Assembly (NCBI GenBank): GCA_010015585.1
Contig: ML975151.1
Origin: Eremomyces bilateralis CBS 781.70
Taxonomy: Eukaryota
Reading direction: 5' to 3' (one strand)
DNA: 40,617 nt
Part shown: positions 1 to 18,193 of the stretch, one piece after another
Layout of the letters: every line of letters starts with the position of its first letter
Position numbering within the stretch: position 1 is the stretch's first letter
The notes under the pieces: model-generated
Seen by the model: the letters and a program-made list of their open reading frames with translations, nothing else
Database searches by the model: none
What the model was told of the DNA's origin: nothing
Program-made: the position numbers and the translations under genes

Positions 1-1058
1 AGAACAATGACAACTTGGACCGATGTCTGGCCAAATGATCAATGCTTGCTGTGGTTTGGGCTTTTTGCTGCGAGATATTAGTCGACACCATTGTGAGCAT
101 GCTCAGCCTTTGAGTCCTTTCCCCAAAGCTCTTGCCAATCAGTTTCTTCAGGTTTCTTTTGAAACTCGTTACAGCAATCGCTACAGCATCCCTCAAATGC
201 TCACTTAGGACCGTTGTTATGTTCAGATGCACCTCTTAGAAACCGGGACTGACTGACAATCTAAACCATGAATATCTGGGAAGCATAGAATCAGTCCTTA
301 GCCGGTGCTCAAATGGGATACCTATGAGGTCCATAAGGATATCATTAGCATAATTGCCGCAGAATGAGCATGGATTGTCTACTGGAGTTATATCAGTTCC
401 GATAGTTGTCAGTATAACCAGTCCCTAAATAACCATTACGGCCCTCCGCTTCCTGACTAAATGAAACGCAGTAGGGATTCAGACATATCTTGCCGTATTT
501 CGAACTTCATGTACCTCCCAAGAACTAGATCTCCCTCTAGGACCATTTTGATCGGAGATGAACGGGCCTGGAGGCGACAGTACGGTAGGCCCAAGGCCAG
601 GAGGACGAAGTATCATGGACTCTCCTGCTGCTTCATGGCCATAGATGATGATATCCAATTCCATACTCACGTGCCTTCAGCATGAATTCATTGCATGTGC
701 TCGGGAGTAACCGATACCGTTCAGTTCACTCGACACGTGGATAGCTGCATTCCGTTTGTTTGTCATTTTCTCTTGCCGGTAAATTAGGTGATATCATTAT
801 CACTAAGATGCAGCAGCGCCATCACTGATCGTGTGATTCTTCATAAAAGGTCACGCACTCACCTTGAATGTCAACTTCTTTCTTTTTCTTCTGCCAGTGT
901 TTATTTATCTCTCTTCCTCACGTACTTCGCACTTCGCACTCGGTTAGCATATTCCGAGTGTACTCCCTCGTTTAACTCTTTCAACCAGAGTTTAGTTATC
1001 AAAATTATCCACTCTGCTCTCACTCCTTTCACTGGTAACTTCCCAACTCACCTTCTGC

Positions 1059-3512
1059 ATGAAGTCGCTCAATGCCCTCCTGGGTCTCTTGGCCCTCAGA
1101 GCTACCCTCGCGGAGGCACTTCCGAAAGATCCAGCGTCCAATGCAATCACTGTCGTTGAACATGATGCCATGCTTCAAAATGCCTACTCGGTCGACCGCC
1201 ATCTCAGCCCCGGGCCCTCGGTGAGCTGCAGCAGTGGCTATACCTTCCCCGAAATCCTCCGCACCCCATTCAAGGAGGCATTCTGTGACCGCATGTCCAA
1301 CCAACAAGGATATCAGGGTGAGGGCGATAACACGAAATCATGGCTCTCGGTCCTGCATATCCCCGAGACGGGCGATCACACCGATGCCTCGTTCATCGTT
1401 GTCGCGCTAGTGGACCGACCTGGCGCCACCTTCGACTTCTCCACCTGCATGGCCGCTTTCGAACACTTGATCTATAGTTGCCCGGCCACTGGGGGGAGAT
1501 TCTATGGCGGAACTTATCTCGACAATAGCTTTGCCTGGATGATCAGTGTCCAGTCATACGCATCGTCACTTACGCCGGATGAGGGAAAGGTGGAGGTAGA
1601 GCTACCTAGCACCACCATCAGTCCTCGCGGTCAAGTTGAGCTGTCATCAGATGATCCACACATTGTCGGTAACTTGCCTCTCACCCCCGACGATTTTGAC
1701 ATATCACGTTACGGCCTAGACGTTTTCAAGTGCGACCCACCGACAAGCCGAGCCCTTCAGCGAACAGAGGCCTACAAATATGCATTCGAGTTCTGCAATT
1801 CCACGGCATTGACCAAGGCTTACTCTGTCATCGATGGGCGCCAGTACTGGGCTTGGCAAACAGAACAAGAGAGCGCTTCTGACGACAGCTATTTGGTCTA
1901 TTTCCTCGCATCGGGACCAGTGAACCACACGGTTGGGTATCACATCGACGAATGCCACGTTGCCGTGTATTCTCTGTTCCAGAAGTGTGGAGATTCGCAT
2001 CGACCGACGTACTACCCTGGAACGTTTGCCGATGACTTCGGCTTCATATGGTTCCTCCGAATAATCCAACGAAAGTCGGCTGCTCACAAGGTCTCGGCAA
2101 AGCAGGCGGAGGCAATCCTAGACGATACATTTGAGTCTGTCGAATTCGAAACCCATAAGCGTCTCGCATCAAAGGATATTGATGCTGGATCCACACCTGG
2201 TGAGAAGCGGACGTTGGATTCCTCCTCTACTGGCCTCGGACCTGGAATCATGACGAACACAGTCGACCTCAGCGATGTGGCACCCCCTTTATTTGCACAT
2301 GACGCTTATATCCAAGCCATGGTTGTGGAAGCGAGCGAAGGATGGCTTTCGTGCCAACCCACTTCTTCCCCAGTCGCAGCGACCGCTTTCGTCGGCAGGA
2401 TTATCACAGATTTCTGTACCGCCTCCACATCGTCATCTGGGGTCAAGGCAGGACCATCCACGTCATGGACCTCCTCGTTCCAACTTGTCGAGCGACATAA
2501 GGATATCCGTGTCGATATGAGCATCCAAACAGACTTTGACGACGGCAAATTCGACAGAGCCAAGTGTACCTCGACATACTGGAATAAAGTGATGGATGCA
2601 TGCGCACAGAAGAACGGTGATAGCTGGCTGTATCATGGTGGCGCCTACTTCGATGGGGAATTCGAGTGGAGCTTCACGATGACGAATCTCAACCCCGGCG
2701 CCGCCAATGTCAAGAACCTCGAATCCAGAGCTGTAGACACTAACGAGGATGCAAAGATCGCTCCCCGCGACACGACCGCCACCCAGGGCATCATCCACTG
2801 CAATAACAACGATGATCAAGCCGTCAGCTCCGATGAAATGAGCGGCGCAGTCACCAACTTCTGCGAGCGGACCTCCGACACGAGGCTTTTTGGGATCGCA
2901 TCGACGACGTACTCTTTCCCGAACTTCTCGGTCGAGCTGTCTTCTACGGTGCCTGCGACTGGAAACTGGTCGTATGATGTGACCAAGTGCACAGACAGCT
3001 TCTGGCAAATCCTTCATAGTTGTCAAGCTAGCAGTATCGATCCTATCAAGCATCACGGAGGATCGAATGACGAACTCAATCATATCTGGAAAGTCAGCAT
3101 CCAAAAGAAGGCGACAGATGGTCAAGACGCCGTATCTCTTGCGGATCACGAAGATGTGGACGCGACCGCAGCTCAGAGGCGTATTGTATGCAAAGGTATC
3201 AACTCACCCGAAGAGATTACCAACTATTTGAACCCGGCCATCGGGGATTTCTGCAGATCCAAGGCTGGGGGGCAGAATCAAGGAAGATGGGTTGGGTGGT
3301 TCAAACCTGCAAATCAGAAGATTCGTCTCTCCGTCGAAGGCCCGGAAGTCGGGACTTTTACTCCGGGTGAATGCGAGGAGGGGTTTTTCACCGTGAGGGA
3401 TGCCTGTCATGGGACGGTAGGACCAGGATGGTCGAAAGGCGGAGTTAACTTTGACGGAGACTGGCACTGGTACACCGATATCTGGGACTCCTGGGGAGAC
3501 ATGAAGTCATGA
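1059..3512 (+). CDS. Secreted cysteine-rich protein with five tandem ~105-115 aa 4-Cys modules (fungal lectin-2/LDL-like), probable polyprotein
   Basis: Single 817-aa ORF. Signal peptide MKSLNALLGLLALRATLA. Five modules share C-x(18-20)-FC...C-x(10-11)-C...GG...W (PG in module 2). Linkers are acidic and contain KR/RR/PR sites. Confidence 0.85.
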   Translation: MKSLNALLGLLALRATLAEALPKDPASNAITVVEHDAMLQNAYSVDRHLSPGPSVSCSSGYTFPEILRTPFKEAFCDRMSNQQGYQGEGDNTKSWLSVLHIPETGDHTDASFIVVALVDRPGATFDFSTCMAAFEHLIYSCPATGGRFYGGTYLDNSFAWMISVQSYASSLTPDEGKVEVELPSTTISPRGQVELSSDDPHIVGNLPLTPDDFDISRYGLDVFKCDPPTSRALQRTEAYKYAFEFCNSTALTKAYSVIDGRQYWAWQTEQESASDDSYLVYFLASGPVNHTVGYHIDECHVAVYSLFQKCGDSHRPTYYPGTFADDFGFIWFLRIIQRKSAAHKVSAKQAEAILDDTFESVEFETHKRLASKDIDAGSTPGEKRTLDSSSTGLGPGIMTNTVDLSDVAPPLFAHDAYIQAMVVEASEGWLSCQPTSSPVAATAFVGRIITDFCTASTSSSGVKAGPSTSWTSSFQLVERHKDIRVDMSIQTDFDDGKFDRAKCTSTYWNKVMDACAQKNGDSWLYHGGAYFDGEFEWSFTMTNLNPGAANVKNLESRAVDTNEDAKIAPRDTTATQGIIHCNNNDDQAVSSDEMSGAVTNFCERTSDTRLFGIASTTYSFPNFSVELSSTVPATGNWSYDVTKCTDSFWQILHSCQASSIDPIKHHGGSNDELNHIWKVSIQKKATDGQDAVSLADHEDVDATAAQRRIVCKGINSPEEITNYLNPAIGDFCRSKAGGQNQGRWVGWFKPANQKIRLSVEGPEVGTFTPGECEEGFFTVRDACHGTVGPGWSKGGVNFDGDWHWYTDIWDSWGDMKS

Positions 3513-6978: not shown

Positions 6979-8202
6979 TCAGAACCCATCTCCCGCCTTA
7001 TATTCCCTCCCTGAGACCTCCGCTCTGATGCGCGGATCCATCCCCCGCTCAAGCGCGACCCTCCTCCCCGAACCGAGCTCATTCCGAAGCCGTCCCACCT
7101 CGTCCTTCAACCACCGTTCCCGACTTTCCGCCGGGAACTCCAGATCCTCCCAGCGCGTCACCGCACCATTCATCCCACCTTCCCACACCTCCCTATTCTC
7201 CCGAAACCACCCCGCCAACTCCCGCTCCAACCCCTGCATCCGCCACCTTACCTCAAACCACCTCCCAAACTCCTCGTCGTCCTCGAAACACACCCCGTAC
7301 CCGTCGCAGTAGCACGCGTGCATCGCCGGACACACCTCGCTCTCCCCCGCAAACACCACCTGCCACAGATACTCCCAGATGCGCCCGCTCATCGAGTCGC
7401 GGATGCTCGTGCGCAGCAGCCAGTCGCGGAAGAAGATCCATCGGCCGCGCGGCGTGCGCTGGATCACCTCCCGCGTCACCGCCATCTGGCTGCAACACGG
7501 CTGGGCTAGCGTTTGCGGGATGTCGGTAAGGGGGAATAGCTCGCTAAAGGCGCGGGCGATGAAGAGTTCCTCTTTGCGGTCGGGGACTTCAGCGGTGGCG
7601 CCCGGGTGCAGCCAGGCCGGGCAGCCGGGGTCCCAGTGGCAGCGGAGGTTCATGTAGCCGTGGGAGCGGGCGAGGCGGTGGTAGTTGAGGCGGCGGAGGG
7701 ACTCGGCGATGTCGTGGTTGAGGAGGTCATTGTTGTGCCAGGCGGTGCGGTGGTTGTGGAGGAAGAGGATGACGGCGGGGAGGGTGTCGTAGTGGTCGAT
7801 TATGTAGGTCAAGTAGATCATGGCTTCGTTGCCTTTGTTTTTGGGTGGGTGGAGCGGCGCGGAGAGGTCGTCGGCGACGTAGATGGCGGTGGAGACCGGG
7901 TGGGGCAGGTCGTCGAGCCAGGTCGTATTCTCTTTCTTGAGGCGCGGGATCACGAGGACCATGCTATCTGGCTGTCCCAGCGCTTCTCGATCGGGAGCAG
8001 GTTGCGACTCCAGGCTGGGAAGGCTCCACATGAGCTCCGGTGGCAGCGTTGGGGGGTCCTCGGGTTTCGGTGTCGGCTTCGGGCGCAGCCCCGCCAGCCA
8101 TGTTTGCCATGGTTTCTGGAGATCATGGCTAAAATGAAGAAATATGACACAGCCTATTATGAGGAATATAACCAGTTCGATATACCGGCGGAGTCGGGGC
8201 AT
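6979..8202 (-). CDS. DUF3431 family type II membrane protein
   Basis: True ATG is at 8202 (the ORF-track start at 8298 is TTG). N-terminal TM segment YIELVIFLIIGCVIFLHF. Motifs NKGNEAMIYLTYIIDHYDTLP, AWHNND, GYMNLRCHWDPGCP, QPCCSQ and SGRIWEYLWQ are typical of DUF3431. Confidence 0.9.
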   Translation of the reverse strand: MPRLRRYIELVIFLIIGCVIFLHFSHDLQKPWQTWLAGLRPKPTPKPEDPPTLPPELMWSLPSLESQPAPDREALGQPDSMVLVIPRLKKENTTWLDDLPHPVSTAIYVADDLSAPLHPPKNKGNEAMIYLTYIIDHYDTLPAVILFLHNHRTAWHNNDLLNHDIAESLRRLNYHRLARSHGYMNLRCHWDPGCPAWLHPGATAEVPDRKEELFIARAFSELFPLTDIPQTLAQPCCSQMAVTREVIQRTPRGRWIFFRDWLLRTSIRDSMSGRIWEYLWQVVFAGESEVCPAMHACYCDGYGVCFEDDEEFGRWFEVRWRMQGLERELAGWFRENREVWEGGMNGAVTRWEDLEFPAESRERWLKDEVGRLRNELGSGRRVALERGMDPRIRAEVSGREYKAGDGF

Positions 8203-9218
8203 GGTTCGGTAGCGTGCTCGGCGAGTCGTTCGTGCTACGGGACTTCGCGCGGGTCTCTTGAATGGCGCATGGATCGTGGCACCGCCTGCGCAAATCAACA
8301 GTCAGCTTCATGGAGTCTCGGAAGCGCGTCGAAGAGATTCAGACATACTAGGTATGATATAAATTTCCAAGGATAAATGTTCCGGGATGTAGTGGGGGGT
8401 TCGCGACTCAATATATGCTGGATCCAAAAGGTGACGAGTCGTCTGGGCTCCACGAGAGAGTTCCGTCGTTTCCTACATAAAGACGATTCTCGCCTCCAAA
8501 ATATAATATTTGGGAGGTCGGGGAAGGTAGAATGTGTAACCACGGATGTGTAAGATTCAGGAACACACCGACGCGGGCAGGTGCTGGAATCAACTATGGT
8601 TTGGGGCGGAGTTTTGGGATCCTTCAAGAGGTATTCTTTGCGAAGGAGCAGGAAACGTGAATATGGAAACCAATGGGATAATAGGCTCCTTGTTTGTGAT
8701 AGTGATTACTTATTCCATTATCATATCAATCGATAAGAAGGAATACCTATCATAGTTCACAGGCGTGTCCTCCCAATGTGAAAGAGAAGGGGATTATCAA
8801 ACCTCCATCGTGGCGAATCTTTATGCAGGGACATGGCTTAGCGTCCCATCACCGCCATGCTTCACCAAATGTGCCCCTAAAAAAGTGCAATACCTATCAA
8901 GAAGTTCCATTTTTGGAAAGCCGCTACAGGCATATTTATGGCATACTATTTATACACAAGCCTGTTTGAAGCGTTCTGCACCTGTAACTCACCACTTGGG
9001 AGCAATGACATGAAGCGTATCTGTACCAACACGATCCCGAATCCCATGACCGGCATCCGTGACCCGTCAAATGCCGCGACTTCTCCAGAGTCCAGCAATC
9101 TCTCTTCCAAGTTCTAAGGATATAGCGCTCACCCACTATTCACCCAAGGACATGCAATCGGCGATCCTGTTCATGAAATGCCGGAAGTGAAGGGTTGCAA
9201 AACCCCTACATATCGCCC

Positions 9219-10573: not shown

Positions 10574-11089
10574 CACGATAACAAGGGTATGATTGGTCAA
10601 ATGCTCCTCTAACGCTTGTCAACCGAAAAAGGGAAATCTCGCGATGTTGAAGCTGGCGTCGTTCAACGGAATTGAATGAGAAAAAAGGTGTAACAAAATT
10701 TGTTTTGATGACATTCCCAAGCTGAGGATAAAGTAGAAAATTCGAGTGCGCTTTCAGTGAACTGTGACTTAAAAGTGTGTAAACACATTGCTCGTTGGAT
10801 GGGTAGGGAGAATATACGCCTTGTCGCCTTGTCGCCTTAGTCCAGCAGCAGCAGTGCAGCAGGGAGGCAGATTGATCCACAATTGAGCAGGAATCATGAT
10901 TGAGGCCGCAATCCCAGTTGATATCCAATCATCCAGGCGGATCTGAGTAGATGCGAGTAACTTTCTCCAAGTTTTTGATGAACGAATTTGTACTATTAAA
11001 CCAGGCGTTACCCGAATCCCCTAATTGAGCCTTTCATTTCCTGTCATCTCTTGCATCTTAATGTAGACGTTCAGCGTCGTTTGAATCCG

Positions 11090-11958
11090 ATGAATCTCTC
11101 AGGCACCTTCAACGCGTTCCGCCTGCTGAGAGAGCCGTCAATATGTCTCCCGCATCATACTATACCAACATTTGAGCACCTCTCCCTACCCCTGGGCGCC
11201 GACTTTGCAAGGCGTGCAGGGCAGAGCAAACCGAGCATCAAGGCGGTTGTGCTCGATAAGGATAACTGCTTTGCGATTCCGCATACAAATGAGATCTATC
11301 CTCCGTATAAGGTAGGGATTGGCGAATGGGGTGGATTTCGCCACGTCGCGGAGCCTGTAAGTTCGGAATGCTGACGGGAACGAATGTAGGCGAAATTCGA
11401 GGAGCTTCGCAAAGCCTATCCAGGTCGTCGGCTCCTGATCGTCTCCAACACGGCCGGAACGCTCTCCGACCCGGGAAATCGCGAAGCCGAAGAGCTGGAG
11501 AAGAACACCGGCGTCCATGTCTTGCGGCATGCGGTCAAGGTAACCAACCATTGAAAGCCCCCTGAAAATCGCCGAGAGAAGTCATGCTGACGACGCGGCA
11601 GAAACCCGGATGCCACCAGGAGGTTCTGGATTATTTCCGAAAGAATCCAGAAGCGCAGGTGACATCGCCCGCGGAGATCGCGGTGGTGGGCGATCGGTTG
11701 CTCACGGATATGATGTTGGCGAATATGATGGGGTCCTATGGGGTGTATGTTCGGGATGGGGTGACGAGCGAGCGAAGCATAGTAAGTCTATTGTCTAATC
11801 ACCGCCGGGATGATGGTGAAGCGTCACACTGGACGACATACATTGCGTTTCATGTGGTAACGATTGATGAATAGTTCTCAAGCATGGAACTGCGCCTGAG
11901 TGCGTTCCTGCAGAAGCGTGGGGTTGTGGCACCGCACCCTGTGAGCGATTTCGAATGA
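11090..11958 (+). CDS. GEP4: Mitochondrial phosphatidylglycerophosphatase (HAD superfamily)
   Basis: Exons 11090-11311, 11390-11539, 11602-11781 and 11875-11958 are in frame. Motifs VVLDKDNC, LLIVSNTAG, KKPGC, VVGDRLLTD. Confidence 0.93.
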
Positions 11959-12541
11959 TCCCAGATTCTGAGGACGTCGAGCCTCGGTTGAGTCGTGTCG
12001 AGCTCGACTGGTCGAGACCTGTTGCTTGGAACATCTACCAAGTACTAAAGTACTTCCGGCAACATATTCTGTCAGAGATCAACCATTTCATTGCAGCCAG
12101 CCCGCAATTATGTGCAATGTAGATCGTACACGCTGGCGGAATTAATAGCATAAAGTGGTAACTCCGTGAACTTAGGTTTCAGACCTCGTCCCCCCTGTCG
12201 AGATGCACCAGAACCCAGAACAACAAATATTGAGCGAAACGTTCTCGAACACCAACAATTGTCAAACCTTATTTATCGTTACGTTAGGCGATGGACGATA
12301 ATTGCCAAGGCGGCCTCTGTATCAGTGCCTGTCGCTCTGCTGCGTGCGATGCTTGACGCCCAGAACCGTTTCGGAAGTATGCGCTGCTTTTTGAGGCAAT
12401 TTAATCTAATCCATACGATGGCGATGATGACAGGCTGTCGCGATGTTTTTCCCGTTCAAATATGTCTATAACTATTTTTTCAAAACTCATTCATGTTCGT
12501 TCTTTGCTAGTAATAGATTATTTCTATGGGTTTCATCCAAC

Positions 12542-13996
12542 ATGCGTTGTCCACCCGTTCTGCAGTGTGTTACTGTGCTACTAGGATTCGGTACAATAGC
12601 CAAGGGCGAAGGCTGGTTCGGAAGCGGTTCTCAGAATGCGGTAACGGTATGTGTTAAGAGCTTTTGAGCGAGAATTCAAGCTAAGCCGACGCTGACTCCA
12701 GTATGAGGACGATTTCCCGACTCCGCGGCATCAACAAGCCAAAGAAGCCTTACTCAATCATATCCAACGAGATAGGTGGGTGTGGAACCGAAGTCATCCC
12801 CGCTACGCCTTGTTAAATGCACTGTATGGATATCTGCGATACCGCGAGAGTAATATTGAAGAGGTCTTAAAATGGAAGGAACTATACGAAAGACTTCCTT
12901 TTGCACAGAAAAAGGTTCGTGATGGAGAGGAGCAGACGTAAGCCGAGCTGACGCAACAAAGGTTGCGCGAGACGTAATACACTATGACAAGAGCTTAGAC
13001 CGGGTGGAGCGGCTATACGAAGAGAACGCGCAAGTGGCCGATGCCATTCTAAACCACGGGCTCCAGTACTATCAAGTGGACCGGAAGGAGCTCGAGCAAT
13101 TTGCTCAGGAGGCCGAAGCGGACAAACGAGAACCGGATCGTAAGGAAGTTCTACAGGCAATGCGCCATTTCGTTCGAGACTGGTCGGATGATGGCACGCA
13201 TGAGCGCATGGAGACATTTCCATGGGTCCTTGAGACAATTGATGGACTGTTTCCATCGCGCCATGACAATCCCGACAATCCGATCAAGGTGATCATCCCA
13301 GGATCTGGACTGGGGAAGTTAGCGCACGAAATCGGAGACCTAGGAGGTAAGCAAAACATCTACAGAATCATGTCAGCAGCATTAACCCCCGCAGGTTTCG
13401 AAGTGACCTCCAACGAGTGGTCAATGTACATGAGCGTCGCATACCGATACATGCAAACGCTCAAAGAGAAGGAATCCGTCACATACTACCCGTACATTCC
13501 CCGCTGGTCCCACCAAATCAACCGCGCGAACCTCGAACGCGGCGTCAAGATGCCCAATACCGCCATCGACAACACAGCTATCGTGCACGTCGAAGGCGAC
13601 TTCACCCACATCTTCAAAGCCCAAGCCGGCCAATTTGACGTCGTCGTCACGCTCTTCTTCATCGACACTGCCTGGAACCTGCTGACGTACATGGACAGCA
13701 TCAAGGCGATGCTGAAGCCAGGTGGGTACTGGCTGAACCTGGGGCCGCTGCTCTACCGCGCGCAACCGTACGTGCAGCTCACTCTAGAGGAGATCCTAGA
13801 CGTGTCGGAGCACATGGGGTTCGAGTTCCTGGACATCGATCCGAAGTGGGGGAACCTGACGGTCGAGGGGAGGAAGGCGAGGGGGGTGGAGGCGCGGTAT
13901 AGTTTCGACCTGGAGGCGTTGATTAAGCATGCGTATTACGCACAGATGTGGGTCGCAAGGAAGACGGAGGATGACCTGTTTCATTCAGAGCTGTAG
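12542..13996 (+). CDS. N2227/CARNMT1-family SAM-dependent methyltransferase with predicted signal peptide and C-terminal HSEL
   Basis: Exons 12542-12646, 12702-12914, 12962-13346 and 13395-13996 are in frame. Motifs HFVRDWS, VIIPGSGLGKLA, NEWSMYM, EGDF, TLFFIDTA, GGYWLNLGPLLY. Confidence 0.88.
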
Positions 13997-14396
13997 ATGT
14001 AGCGTTCCAAGGGATTTCCTGTCACTGTCTGGCATGAACCGACGATCGATTGCTGGAGCCGACCCTAGCTACCGAAGTGGATGAGGTGAGACGCGAGATG
14101 TGATGAGAAATATATTATCCATAGCCAAATACGTCTCCTCGGAACTAGCCGTTAAGGAAATGATACAGCGGTATCGGTACCGCGTTAAATCATCTGGGGG
14201 CGAAAAGTACGATGCTTGTCATGCACATGAAGATCTAAATTCTATTATTCTAATGCGCTTATGGAGAATCAAGGATTATTAATATGCGCGCGACGAGCGA
14301 ATAGTGACAAATTCTGTAACCAAGACTCAGGGGTCTGACTCAGGAGACATCAATAAGCAGAGAGACTGAGAGAGGAAATAGAACCGAATATGACGA

Positions 14397-14695
14397 CAGG
14401 GCTTCCGTGGGGGAAGAAATTGATGGCCCGTACCATAGAGGCCTTCAGGTCTGAGGTCAGAGCCTTAAACCCGTACTCCATACCACACAGAAATCTAAGT
14501 TTTGAATCGAGCTGCGACGACGCACCCTTACATTTAAAGGCGGATTTAAAGGCGGATTTAAAGGTCAAATTATATTTTAAGAGCTATATCTACCTACCGT
14601 ATGAGTCTGAATTAAATTATCCTTTTTGATGGTTATGATTTTTCGAGAAGAAAACGATATTATGGGCCATCAACTTCTTCCCCACGGAGCTTACT
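14397..14695. mobile_element. Possible MITE / degenerate DNA-transposon relic bounded by imperfect ~35-bp inverted repeats
   Basis: Left arm gcttccgtgggggaagaaattgatggcccgtaccat (14401-14436) matches the reverse complement of 14658-14689 (gctccgtgggaagaagttgatggcccataatat). The interior is AT/TpA-rich. No clear target-site duplication. Confidence 0.4.
14532..14564. repeat. 12-bp tandem repeat (atttaaaggcgg) x2.75
   Basis: Read directly: atttaaaggcgg atttaaaggcgg atttaaagg. Confidence 0.85.
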
Positions 14696-15754
14696 GCCTC
14701 AGCGCCTTCTCCCTATTTTGATATTGAAAGTTTGGAACCCGTGACCCTGGACTCATAACAACATGACAAAGCAAAAGCCACGTCAAAAATCATATCACAT
14801 ACCAGATCAGATGCAATTCATGCAATGCAAATTACAAATGTCCATGATTTCTTTGAACACTGAATTCTTAGTTTCTTACCAAGCCTATTGCCACGCAGTG
14901 TGCCGGGAATGCCTGCCTGCCGTACCTCAAGAGTGCATTCTAGACTTGCATCGGTTCTCGAGTACCTCTACTTGGACTTCAGCAGCATGGAGAGTAGATG
15001 ATGTGATCACGCCTATCCATATGGTCTTTCCACCATGTTTTGTCACATCTCGGGTCAAGCCTTTTAGGCTATTGCTCATGCCTCATGGTCCAGAATCGAA
15101 GCACTGATATCTGAAACGTAAGCATCTACAGCGTATTGCAGCATGGAGATCCAGTAATATTGCGTGGTCAGATTTATCAGCTACGGCCCTCGGAGTTAGG
15201 CAGTCAGACGGTTTTTACACCTACGGTGAGTTTCTACCAAGACCTGTTGGTTCACTAAACCTGTATTGTTGCGAATTGCGAGGTCACCGTTGCTAGCTTT
15301 GTAACTTGTAGTGACGTTCAATAAGTCAAATTTCACTAATTAATTAACCCTATCGACTAACTAATGGTTTAAAGTCCATCCAACTGGGACGTTTGGACTG
15401 CATCACCGGCCTTAACAGCTTTGTCACCCGGAGTTAGAACCATCCCCTTGATGGATTCCTTCATCCTTTCACATTCCTGAACCAGAGGATTTGGTTCTAT
15501 GTTATATTATAAATGTTGATTATGTATTCACATTGTTATGCTGCCCTCCAGGAATATATTTATATACTTCTTACTCGAGTTTGCTGTCCCTTCAATTCAC
15601 TAAGATACAACCTTTACTCCTTTCTCACCACTCTCTCACTACTCTCACTTCCCCCACGACCGTTACACTCGGTTCAGTCCGTTTACGCACCTCCCCATCA
15701 TCCTACTCCAATACCATACTCAGCCGAAGAAAAAATCAGCACTTGCGAAATACC

Positions 15755-17574
15755 ATGACTTCATCGACAACCTCAGAGAAGGGCGATCTCAAAGCCGAAT
15801 CTGGAACGACAACTCCTGCCCCTGGACGAAAGTCGCCAAGCATTCTAGAAGATCCTGAAAAGGATGCTGGGATCCTGTCTCCCAGTGTTCCGAACGATTC
15901 TGCTCCTCAAGAAGAGTGGACACGACCATACACACCCTGGCGATGGGTTCTAGTGCTGGTAGCCCTTTACCTGGCGGCGTTCCTCTACGGGCTTGACAAT
16001 ACCATCGTTGCCGACGTCCAGGGCCCCGTCATCGAAACGTTCGGAAATGTGGACAAGATTGGTTGGCTTGGGATCGGCTTTCCCTTAGGATCCATCGCGA
16101 CGCTTGCTACCTTCGGCAAGGCCTACTCCATCTTTGACATTAAGTGGCTGTTCAATGGTAGCCTGATCATGTTCATTGCCGGCAGTGCGCTTTGTGGCGG
16201 TGCGCCGTCCATGACCGCTTTGATCATTGGACGCGTTTGGGCCGGAGCTGGCGGTTCTGGGATGTACCTGGGGTAAGTCGAGGTCCGAGTCGCTAGAAGT
16301 TCTCGTACTGACCAGTGTCACAGAATCTTGAATATTCTCACAATAAACACCAACTCAATCGAGCGGTCCATGTATATGTCCGGATGTGGCCTGGTATGGG
16401 GTATCGGCTGTATATTGGGACCAGTCATCGGCGGGAGCTTCGCCGACAGCTCCGCAACTTGGCGCTGGGTATGTTAAGCTTTCTCCATGTGTTGCATGCA
16501 TCTACTAATGCTCCATAGGCGTTTTATATCAATCTCATCCTATATGGCATTCTTTGCCCGGTGGGAATTTTCTTCATCAGATCCATCAACCCCCAGCCGG
16601 ATAAGACTTTCTTCAATAAGCTGCGACATATTGACTGGGTAGGATCCTTCCTCAATGCTGGCCTGTACACGTTCTTCGCCTCCGCGTTTACTTTTGGGGG
16701 TGCGGTCTATGCATGGAACGATGGCAAGACGATCGCCTTTATTGTCCTATTCGCCGTGTTCCTCATTGCCTTCGCCCTTCAGCAGACCTACATGGTGTTC
16801 ACCACGTTCGAGACGCGAATCTTCCCGATCGACTTCATCAAAGACCGCACGCTCGTCCTGCTCTATATCGCTCAGTCCGCGGCAGCGACTTCACTATTCA
16901 TCCCGATCTACTACACCCCTCTCTTCTTCCAGTTCACCCGAGGCGACTCCGGTACCGACTCTGCAGTCCGACTCCTACCATTCATCTTTCTCGTCATTGC
17001 CGCGATCCTTTTGAACGGATTCCTCATGCCTCGATTTGGATACTACATGCCCTGGTTCCTCGTCGCACCGATCTTTACCTTAGTTGGTTCGGCGTCTTAC
17101 TACGCACTCGTCGATGCGTCGATCAGCGCAGGAAAAATCTACGGATTCGGCGTCCTCATGGGCATCGGCGCCGGCCTCTCCCAGCAGTCATCGTACTCCG
17201 TAGCTCCCACGCAAGTCGAACCGCACCGGATCTCGGACGCCCTCAATTTCATCAACAGCGCCCAGATCGGCGGCTTCGTCATCGCCCTCACGCTCACCTC
17301 GTCGATCTTCCAGAACATCGGCTTCTCGCACGTGAGCGCCGCGCTCGCTGGACGGGGTTTCACGCCCGCCGACATTCATCTGGCGCTGGCGGGAGCGAAG
17401 AGCGATCTGTTCGCCGACGTGCCGGACAGTGTTCGTCAGGCGGTAATTGATGGCATCGTCAAATCCATCGGCAATGGGTATATCCTGGTCATCACTGCTG
17501 CTGCGGTTGGGCTTATCGCGGCTCTTTGTATGAAGAGGGAAAAGTTGTTCATGGAAGTCGGAGCTGGCGGTTGA
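15755..17574 (+). CDS. MFS drug:H+ antiporter, DHA2 (14-TMS) efflux pump
   Basis: Exons 15755-16272, 16324-16468 and 16519-17574. Motifs LYGLDNTIVA, GSALCGGAPSMTALIIGRVWAGAGG, LGPVIGG, WRWAFYINL, IDWVG, plus many TM segments. Confidence 0.93.
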
Positions 17575-18193
17575 GCTGGGGAGGAAAAGCAGTGATCATT
17601 GATTATCCACTGTTTTGGATCCTTAGTTACTAAAGGAACAAATGGGGGTTGGTCCCGTTAATACCCAATAGAAGGCCTGGCTAGAAATAACGCTATAGAA
17701 ATAGAAATATCCAAGAATATAATTATTTAACTCGTCTGATGTTATCGCGAGGAGAGGGGTTCTAGAACCTGTGTTGCTGGCAAATTACCAGTCGTCAAAC
17801 TCAGTTCGCATGATAATATTGCCCTCGTTTGGATTAAATTCTCCGATTCGGAGTTCGTGCATCAAACGGAGTTGAGCGAGTCCATCCCTTGACCGACTGT
17901 AGCAGTGGAGCAGGGGGTCGTTGCTTGAGATGGTGACCTCAGGTTGTTTTCCGATCAGCCCACCAACCTCCAATATAATTGTTTCGCCAGAATCTCCTTG
18001 TCTGTCACGAGTGAACTCAAAACCATGAATTTTGGCTGTGCCAATCATTGTCCAGAAGAATATCTGATACCTCCACCCTGTAGGATTTCGTTGATTTTCT
18101 CATGGCGTGATACCCTTCCGCTGTTGGCTGCTGATTCCACCTCATTCGATCGTAGATATGCAATGCCATATATCCGCATCAGCGGGTAACCAG

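Follow-up and report, generated by a model that had tools for sequence, protein, structure and literature searches.

A CARNMT1-like methyltransferase of Eremomyces bilateralis with signals that may address it to the lumen of the endoplasmic reticulum

Characterised enzymes of the CARNMT1 family are treated as cytosolic or nuclear. PMC11514484 describes CARNMT1 as an enzyme that N1-methylates carnosine and protein histidines, with C3H zinc-finger proteins as targets, and for Aspergillus nidulans the supplements of PMC10349129 list three PF07942 proteins, among them the canonical Q5BF15, with nucleus and cytosol Gene Ontology terms, and C8VLH9, detected with 5 peptides. Inside the secretory pathway, the A. 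nidulans enzyme NHMT (AN4663) is described as resident in the endoplasmic reticulum (ER) and built from seven transmembrane segments and a SpdS/METTL13-like catalytic domain (PMC10349129). Mammalian METTL9 is reported to carry a signal peptide, to localise to the ER, and to be N-glycosylated in a signal-peptide-dependent manner and secreted, and is connected with HxH motifs and with N-pi methylation of plasma proteins, its signal peptide being described as conserved only in mammals (bioRxiv 10.64898/2025.12.23.696137). Here we describe a gene at positions 12542-13996, on the plus strand, of a 40,617-nucleotide (nt) stretch of Eremomyces bilateralis CBS 781.70 DNA (contig ML975151.1; the whole stretch is called the window below), whose product combines a CARNMT1-type catalytic domain with a signal-peptide-like N-terminus and a C-terminal HSEL. 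The explanation that we prefer, with a probability of roughly 0.55, is that this protein is an ER-luminal, S-adenosylmethionine (SAM)-dependent, CARNMT1-like N-methyltransferase, both its activity and its localisation being deduced from sequence.

With CARNMT1 and its yeast relative YNL092W the E. bilateralis protein shares the Pfam family PF07942, the fold, the SAM motifs and the equivalents of Phe313, Asp316, Tyr386 and Tyr398; it differs from them in its signal-peptide-like N-terminus, its HSEL ending, its position in a separate clade and the replacement of His347 by Arg and of Tyr396 by His. If it is luminal, it would resemble NHMT in the features that PMC10349129 gives for that enzyme, a fungal, SAM-dependent, ER-resident histidine methyltransferase for secretory proteins, but it has one short hydrophobic segment and a CARME domain in place of the seven-transmembrane, SpdS-like architecture. 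METTL9 offers, by analogy, the clearest secretory-pathway precedent, as a seven-beta-strand histidine N1/N-pi methyltransferase with a signal peptide, although it belongs to another methyltransferase family, of which our protein has no Pfam match, and no xDEL tail is described for it. Our literature searches on N2227, YNL092W and carnosine N-methyltransferase found no paper on a signal-peptide-bearing clade of the CARNMT1 family; their one relevant match is a predicted secretome that includes an N2227-like protein from Fusarium oxysporum (PMC12943516).

Four plus-strand exons make up the gene and join to 1305 nt with a single stop, at the end. The spliced product of 434 amino acids is identical letter for letter to a database protein, P0001, named by NCBI 'N2227-domain-containing protein [Eremomyces bilateralis CBS 781.70]'. 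This identity confirms what the initial annotation of the locus had proposed, namely that two upstream exons splice in frame so that the protein begins with MRCPPVLQCVTVLLGFGTIAKG followed by EGW. The parts of the gene are as follows.

12443-12541, plus strand: possible N-terminal extension, with an in-frame ATG at 12443 and no stop before 12542, adding 33 residues (MFFPFKYVYNYFF...)
12542-12646, plus strand: exon 1, 35 codons, identical to the P0001 N-terminus
12542-12607, plus strand: signal-peptide-like segment MRCPPVLQCVTVLLGFGTIAKG, codons 1-22 of exon 1
12647-12701, plus strand: intron 1, 55 nt, GTATGT...GCTGAC...CAG, phase 0
12702-12914, plus strand: exon 2, 71 codons, encoding a linker and the first part of the conserved N-terminal helical domain (HPRYALLNALYGYLRY)
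12915-12961, plus strand: intron 2, 47 nt, GTTCGT...GCTGAC...AAG
12962-13346, plus strand: exon 3, helical domain, FVRDWS and SAM motif I (PGSGLGKLA)
13136-13966, plus strand: Pfam CARME (PF07942) match, spanning intron 3
13347-13394, plus strand: intron 3, 48 nt, GTAAGC...TTAAC...CAG, in frame and stop-free
13395-13996, plus strand: exon 4, catalytic core with NEWS, GDF, FFIDTA, GPLLYR, Y403 and Y415
End of exon 4, plus strand: C-terminal tail TEDDLFHSEL and TAG stop, HSEL codons 13982-13993
13997-14227, plus strand: probable 3' untranslated region, an RNA-like contig ending at 14227 (a contig end being a hint only)

All three introns are bounded by GT and AG and contain branch-like motifs, CTGAC or TTAAC. 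Exon 2 has no in-frame ATG, and a stop at 12693-12695 closes its frame on the upstream side; the start must therefore lie in an exon further upstream. The HPR..LL.AL.G motif of the exon 2 region is common to the homologues. Removal of intron 2 joins ...AQKK to VARDVIHY..., which matches the homologues, and removal of intron 3 gives GDLGGFEVTSNEW (...GDLG joined to GFEVTSNEW...), the junction seen in every relative and also in human CARNMT1. Because excision restores these homologous junctions, introns 2 and 3 are required as well. The start is less tightly fixed, since an in-frame ATG lies 99 nt 5' of the modelled one and qualifies the model, and eleven ATGs occur between 12203 and 12526. One other in-frame pair of start and strong donor exists, an ATG at 12526 with a GTGTGT donor at 12565; it makes a weaker first exon of 13 amino acids with no hydrophobic segment.

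The catalytic domain is recognisable by both profile and fold. In the translation of 12962-13993, residues 59-335 match Pfam CARME over profile positions 11-267 of 268, scoring 191 bits where the cut-off is 27 (E 3.3e-56). An AlphaFold2 model built from a 66-sequence alignment of the clade has a mean predicted local distance difference test score (pLDDT) of 90.8 and a predicted template modelling score of 0.87, and the predicted fold is of the CARNMT1 type, an N-terminal helical domain and a seven-beta-strand domain. Its best six PDB matches are chains of human CARNMT1 (5yf0, 5yf1 and 5yf2; E about 1e-27, target-normalised template modelling score 0.85-0.87), and these are followed by the yeast structure 5x62 and then by the OvoA/OvoM imidazole N-methyltransferases. 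FVRDWS, PGSGLGKLA, NEWS, GDF, FFIDTA and KPGGYWLNLGPLLY all align to human CARNMT1 (5yf0_A). Among the 66 clade members G220, G222, E242 and G302 are invariant and D303 is nearly so (at least 90%), and the SAM-binding motifs can therefore be taken as intact, as had been claimed.

The pocket that would hold the substrate is largely kept. The C-terminal tyrosines of the human enzyme, which by the numbering we assume are Tyr386, Tyr396 and Tyr398, have counterparts of the first and the last in Y403, invariant among the 66 clade members, and Y415, nearly invariant; the two match the Y-x9-[Y]-x-Y spacing of an animal CARNMT (Lingula P0357), and it is by this spacing that they were placed as Tyr386 and Tyr398. 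The FFIDTA motif holds the equivalents of Phe313 and Asp316 in the alignment to 5yf0_A. Both are described among the residues that position the substrate imidazole, in a pocket listed as Phe313, Asp316, His347, Tyr386, Tyr396 and Tyr398 (bioRxiv 10.1101/2024.07.18.604158). Since Phe313, Asp316 and two of the three C-terminal tyrosine equivalents are kept, an imidazole-type substrate is the most economical guess, and the glycan substrate that had been offered as an alternative is, on the same residues, the less likely of the two. The methyl group of His1 in lytic polysaccharide monooxygenases (LPMOs) sits on the other ring nitrogen from that of CARNMT1 products. For that LPMO modification, to which the protein had also been linked, NHMT is reported to be solely responsible (PMC10349129), and a role in it no longer recommends itself.

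Two features of the protein, one at each end, would address this domain to the ER. At the N-terminus, residues 3-20 form an uncharged run of 18 residues, with a best 10-residue Kyte-Doolittle mean of 2.19 and positive charge on its N-terminal flank, and either A-K-G or T-I-A is compatible with the requirement for small residues at positions -3 and -1 of a cleavage site. At the C-terminus, the protein ends ...TEDDLFHSEL and a stop, as the claim of a DDLFHSEL ending had it. The model has low pLDDT at residues 1-33 (about 38-56) and over the last ten residues (54), and because of the latter we read the HSEL tail as free in the model and not packed against the domain. Both cysteines lie inside the signal segment, so that the mature protein would be cysteine-free, and sequons are found at N64 and N388.

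With soluble ER residents retrieved by Erd2 the protein thus has in common a signal-peptide-like start and a flexible tail ending in EL, and relatives carry KDEL, HDEL, RDEL or REEL; it differs in having Ser where Asp or Glu is usual. HSEL itself has precedents. In the Coprinopsis protein CCTX2 a C-terminal HSEL is conserved, and its deletion abolished toxicity dependent on retrograde traffic, which the authors read as use of the KDEL receptor (bioRxiv 10.1101/2025.08.11.669643), and the ER-resident GRP94 of Caenorhabditis elegans, ENPL-1, ends in an HSEL described as important for ER retention (PMC3670465). The first of these precedents is a toxin that acts in the cells of nematodes, the second a chaperone from a nematode, and neither concerns a fungal Erd2.

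Among the homologues a signal-peptide-like N-terminus is usual. A first list of 120 proteins contained 94 full-length ones (at least 400 amino acids and a Met start), the closest relatives apart from P0001 being 43-47% identical to it. An uncharged hydrophobic run, with a median of 20 residues, opens 74 of the 94, and in 68 of these 74 the N-terminal flank is more positive than the next 15 residues (the two are equal in five, and the order is reversed in one). This is the charge polarity of signal peptides and type II anchors, and it therefore suggests a luminal orientation of the C-terminal domain. Such starts occur in homologues from three fungal classes, although the N-terminal region cannot be aligned between homologues, and among the 20 full-length proteins without one are near misses as well as models whose first residue already falls within the conserved linker. 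A metagenome locus, L002, encodes a product that shares 89% identity with a Penicillium hetheringtonii protein over 83 residues, and the locus has the same architecture: a signal-peptide-like first exon of 27 codons (MYFRFCIAVLFILVSLVFG...), then a phase-0 intron, with later introns at the same two positions as introns 2 and 3 of the E. bilateralis gene (that at the place of intron 2 after ...KKQK).

In a quick maximum-likelihood tree with 65 rows, 8 canonical rows (animals, early-diverging fungi, a polypore and a yeast) are split (support 95) from 57 others, which mostly have hydrophobic N-terminal segments. Our protein lies inside a clade of 51 filamentous ascomycete rows (support 100) and not with canonical CARNMT1, so that the phylogeny against cytosolic CARNMT1 suggested in the initial annotation does set it apart; judged from sequences, it is best read as a member of a filamentous ascomycete paralogue clade distinct from the canonical, cytosolic CARNMT1. 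Within the clade it falls into a set of 31 rows (support 95), together with a Rhinocladiella protein and a 29-row clade (support 99) that holds Venturia, Tothia, Microthyrium and all xDEL sequences; it stands outside the xDEL subclade.

That subclade was reached from a 316-residue fragment ending in HDEL and then by profile search. Of 439 family proteins collected, 13 end in x[DENQST]EL, namely our protein and 12 environmental ones, of which seven end in KDEL, three in HDEL and one each in RDEL and REEL. On the 65-row tree the x[DES]EL state requires at least three changes, and a tree that forces all 12 x[DES]EL rows together is rejected (approximately unbiased test, p-AU 1.4e-5; the group was named after the tree had been seen). 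Retrieval tails therefore appear to have been gained or lost repeatedly, as would fit a luminal protein; on a cytosolic domain such a tail would be of no use. The closest named full-length relative of the xDEL subclade, P0128 of Microthyrium, starts in a signal-peptide-like manner. Among the homologues, then, the proposal that a CARNMT1/N2227-type enzyme is directed to the secretory pathway or the ER lumen is supported by the 74 N-termini, the 12 xDEL-type tails and the architecture of L002. The expectation that both signals would be conserved together is not borne out for HSEL: the signal-peptide-like start is widespread, and the HSEL ending is specific to the lineage of the E. bilateralis protein within the family. 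Other lineages have tails of their own, among them ...PGSHF, PGSKF or PGNHF in Tothia, Trichodelitschia and environmental proteins, ...KGWW, GWIGW or KEKWI in Zasmidium, Cercospora and others, and ...EHTFNS in Venturia.

The 66-member alignment adds two weak hints. At the columns of W194 and W386 of our protein, 33 members have Cys at both and 22 have a non-Cys residue at the first and Trp at the second, the other 11 showing other combinations (four with a single Cys) or gaps; the Cys pair could form a disulfide in many members, much of the pattern following the tree. A sequon (N-x-S/T) falls at one column in 28 of the 66, our protein not being among them.

We infer a path for the protein that runs from signal-peptide cleavage and luminal residence to catalysis, its substrate, the working of HSEL and the import of SAM. 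The signal peptide, about residues 1-22, would direct co-translational translocation and would probably be cleaved after A20 or G22. The mature enzyme of about 410 residues would fold in the lumen into its helical domain and seven-beta-strand SAM-binding domain, and would use SAM to methylate a nitrogen in some luminal substrate, an imidazole being the likeliest, whether in a histidine residue or in a histidine-containing small molecule. Enzyme that escaped to the Golgi would be returned when its flexible HSEL tail is read by the HDEL receptor Erd2, and such an enzyme would need SAM to be imported into the ER lumen. A wider proposal, which we put forward only tentatively, is that CARNMT1 gave rise, in filamentous ascomycetes, to a conserved imidazole N-pi methyltransferase of the ER lumen, an analogue of METTL9 that might methylate histidines in proteins that are secretory or reside in the ER, or else a metabolite of the lumen derived from histidine.

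Several observations weigh against a luminal enzyme held in the ER by its tail. The second position of HSEL is Ser, unlike the classical retrieval pattern, which we take to be [KRHQSA]-[DENQ]-E-L, and none of the other proteins among the 439 collected ends in HSEL; most clade members have a basic ending, ...WVARK(K/R), and lack a retrieval signal. The 12 xDEL-type relatives are all N-terminally truncated gene calls, with the consequence that a signal peptide and an xDEL tail were never seen together in one relative. A profile search for full-length xDEL members returned one more truncated KDEL protein, P0372, and a metagenome scan with the xDEL-subclade profile confirmed two loci among 130 pattern matches, both of them outside the subclade. 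Our signal-peptide calls rest on a crude heuristic of hydrophobicity and charge, which 20 of the 94 full-length homologues fail, and in 23 distant anchored relatives (weaker representatives, of which the few identified by name were mostly basidiomycetes) the N-terminal flank is the more positive in 10, the C-terminal flank in 10, and the two are equal in three. In the putative pocket, the human His347, which stacks on the substrate imidazole, is Arg in our protein, and the same column holds Gly in 49, His in 12, Tyr in three, Arg in one and Ser in one of the 66 clade members; the Tyr396 equivalent is His. One RNA-like contig runs unspliced over 11875-14227, through all three predicted introns, and neither the exon 1-exon 2 junction nor a spliced mRNA has transcript support in the single RNA-like run. 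Finally, we know of no supply of SAM to the lumen of the fungal ER.

If HSEL does not work as a retrieval signal, then the protein could enter the secretory pathway and pass on to the Golgi, the vacuole or the medium, or be retained in some other way, and would act, if at all, in transit. The tails are what this explanation has in its favour: most clade members pair a signal-peptide-like start with ...WVARK(K/R) or another ending, HSEL is off-pattern at its second position and unique in the family, and an N2227-like protein of F. oxysporum, FOXY_07065, stands in a predicted secretome (PMC12943516). We nevertheless think it unlikely. Canonical KDEL, HDEL or RDEL, or REEL, in 12 relatives suggests that ER retention has been selected in part of the family, the HSEL tails of CCTX2 and ENPL-1 are reported to be functional, and a SAM-dependent enzyme would have no obvious supply of its cofactor outside the cell.

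An uncleaved N-terminus could instead anchor the protein to the ER with its catalytic domain facing the cytosol, in the manner of a P450, where SAM and substrates would be cytosolic and HSEL would be there by chance. This would remove the difficulty that SAM import into the fungal ER lumen is not known, and it would agree with the distant relatives with longer segments, where the C-terminal flank is the more positive in 10 of the 23, and with Cordyceps-group proteins, which show two hydrophobic segments. We hold it to be improbable all the same: signal-peptide-type polarity is found in 68 of 74 ascomycete-clade proteins, the core run of the E. bilateralis protein is only about 15-18 residues long and contains prolines, and the xDEL tails of relatives would be useless on a cytosolic domain.

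The second hydrophobic segment in Fusarium was considered as topology evidence and set aside. Many Fusarium models (P0003 and P0015 among them) contain a hydrophobic insert of about 33 residues (IPNLVCLLLF...LTRESQ) that P0040, P0042 and P0025, models of the same gene, do not have, and the segment reads as an in-frame intron that was translated in the models, VC corresponding to the donor GTATGT and LT to the branch-like CTAAC, which would make the second membrane segment a false one. A separate, mostly basidiomycete clade (P0157-P0260 and P0407-P0439) has a longer hydrophobic N-terminus (for example ...SDVWLALFLPFAIAFVGWR...), often acidic before and basic after the segment, and may be anchored in the opposite topology.

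It is also conceivable, though quite improbable, that the first exon is mis-modelled or the gene poorly spliced, in which case the start would lie elsewhere (for instance at the ATG 12526 with donor 12565) and the product would be an ordinary cytosolic enzyme, or little functional mRNA would be made. The unspliced contig over the whole gene, the alternative start and donor pair that lacks a signal peptide, and an N-terminal region that cannot be aligned among homologues all lean this way. Yet GTATGT at 12647, GCTGAC and CAG make the best splice set and the database model agrees with it, homologues from three fungal classes begin in a signal-peptide-like manner, L002 shares the short first exon, and introns 2 and 3 are required by homology. 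The contigs are called RNA-like because they skip GT..AG introns of both neighbouring genes and leave two intergenic stretches uncovered; they keep the commoner form of a transcript, and cannot show starts, strand, rare isoforms or absence. The contig in question extends over 11013-14227 and joins a PGP-phosphatase gene that lies upstream and is spliced, with introns 11310-11387, 11538-11599 and 11782-11874 removed, to the unspliced methyltransferase gene, which could reflect read-through, overlapping transcripts or intron retention.

The least probable alternative is a luminal or membrane-proximal sensor that binds SAM and does not methylate, like Drosophila's putative CARNMT1 orthologue that acts as a SAM sensor in the mTORC1 pathway (PMC11514484), for although the His347 equivalent is not conserved in the clade, Asp316, Phe313 and two of the three C-terminal tyrosine equivalents are conserved among the 66 members, as expected of an active enzyme.

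Around the gene lie an mpaB-like oxygenase, DUF3431, PGP phosphatase, MFS, HSP20 and WD40 genes, and further an FGGY kinase, a fungal transcription factor, Vps23 and an aminotransferase; none of these neighbours in the window gives a biosynthetic cluster signature. Four of the neighbouring features were placed as follows.

996-3509: Fungal_lectin_2 protein, an open reading frame of 838 residues
5337-6323: protein with an mpaB/Lcp-type 'ER-bound oxygenase' domain
6982-8301, minus strand: DUF3431 protein
14868-17600, plus strand: MFS transporter gene, with MFS_1 on the open reading frames 15452-16273 and 16519-17571

Introns 15225-15373 and 16272-16322 of the MFS gene are removed in an RNA-like contig. 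Between it and the methyltransferase gene lies a tandem repeat at 14523-14563, in which TTTAAAGGCGGA occurs three times, the last copy being incomplete. Among the database models there are some in which CARME is fused to a neighbour, Fungal_trans_2 in P0121 and MFS_1 in P0125 and in Q5AS01 of A. nidulans, and these are probably merged neighbouring genes. A conserved MFS neighbour was considered in this context and discarded as coincidence: the MFS protein of the window is unlike the MFS part of P0125 (E 0.45 and 0.52), and L002 has a gene other than MFS in the downstream position.

What the comparison brings out is a widespread, uncharacterised paralogue clade of fungal CARNMT1-like proteins with putative secretion signals and, in some lineages, ER-retrieval tails. 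If the catalytic domain of these proteins is luminal, then the secretory pathway of fungi would have, next to NHMT, another methylation system of the histidine type, and these proteins would be a candidate source of internal methyl-histidines in secreted or ER proteins. A luminal enzyme would also imply a dedicated route for SAM and would make SAM transport into the fungal ER directly testable. The finding may likewise be relevant to the production of fungal proteins in heterologous hosts that lack the enzyme.

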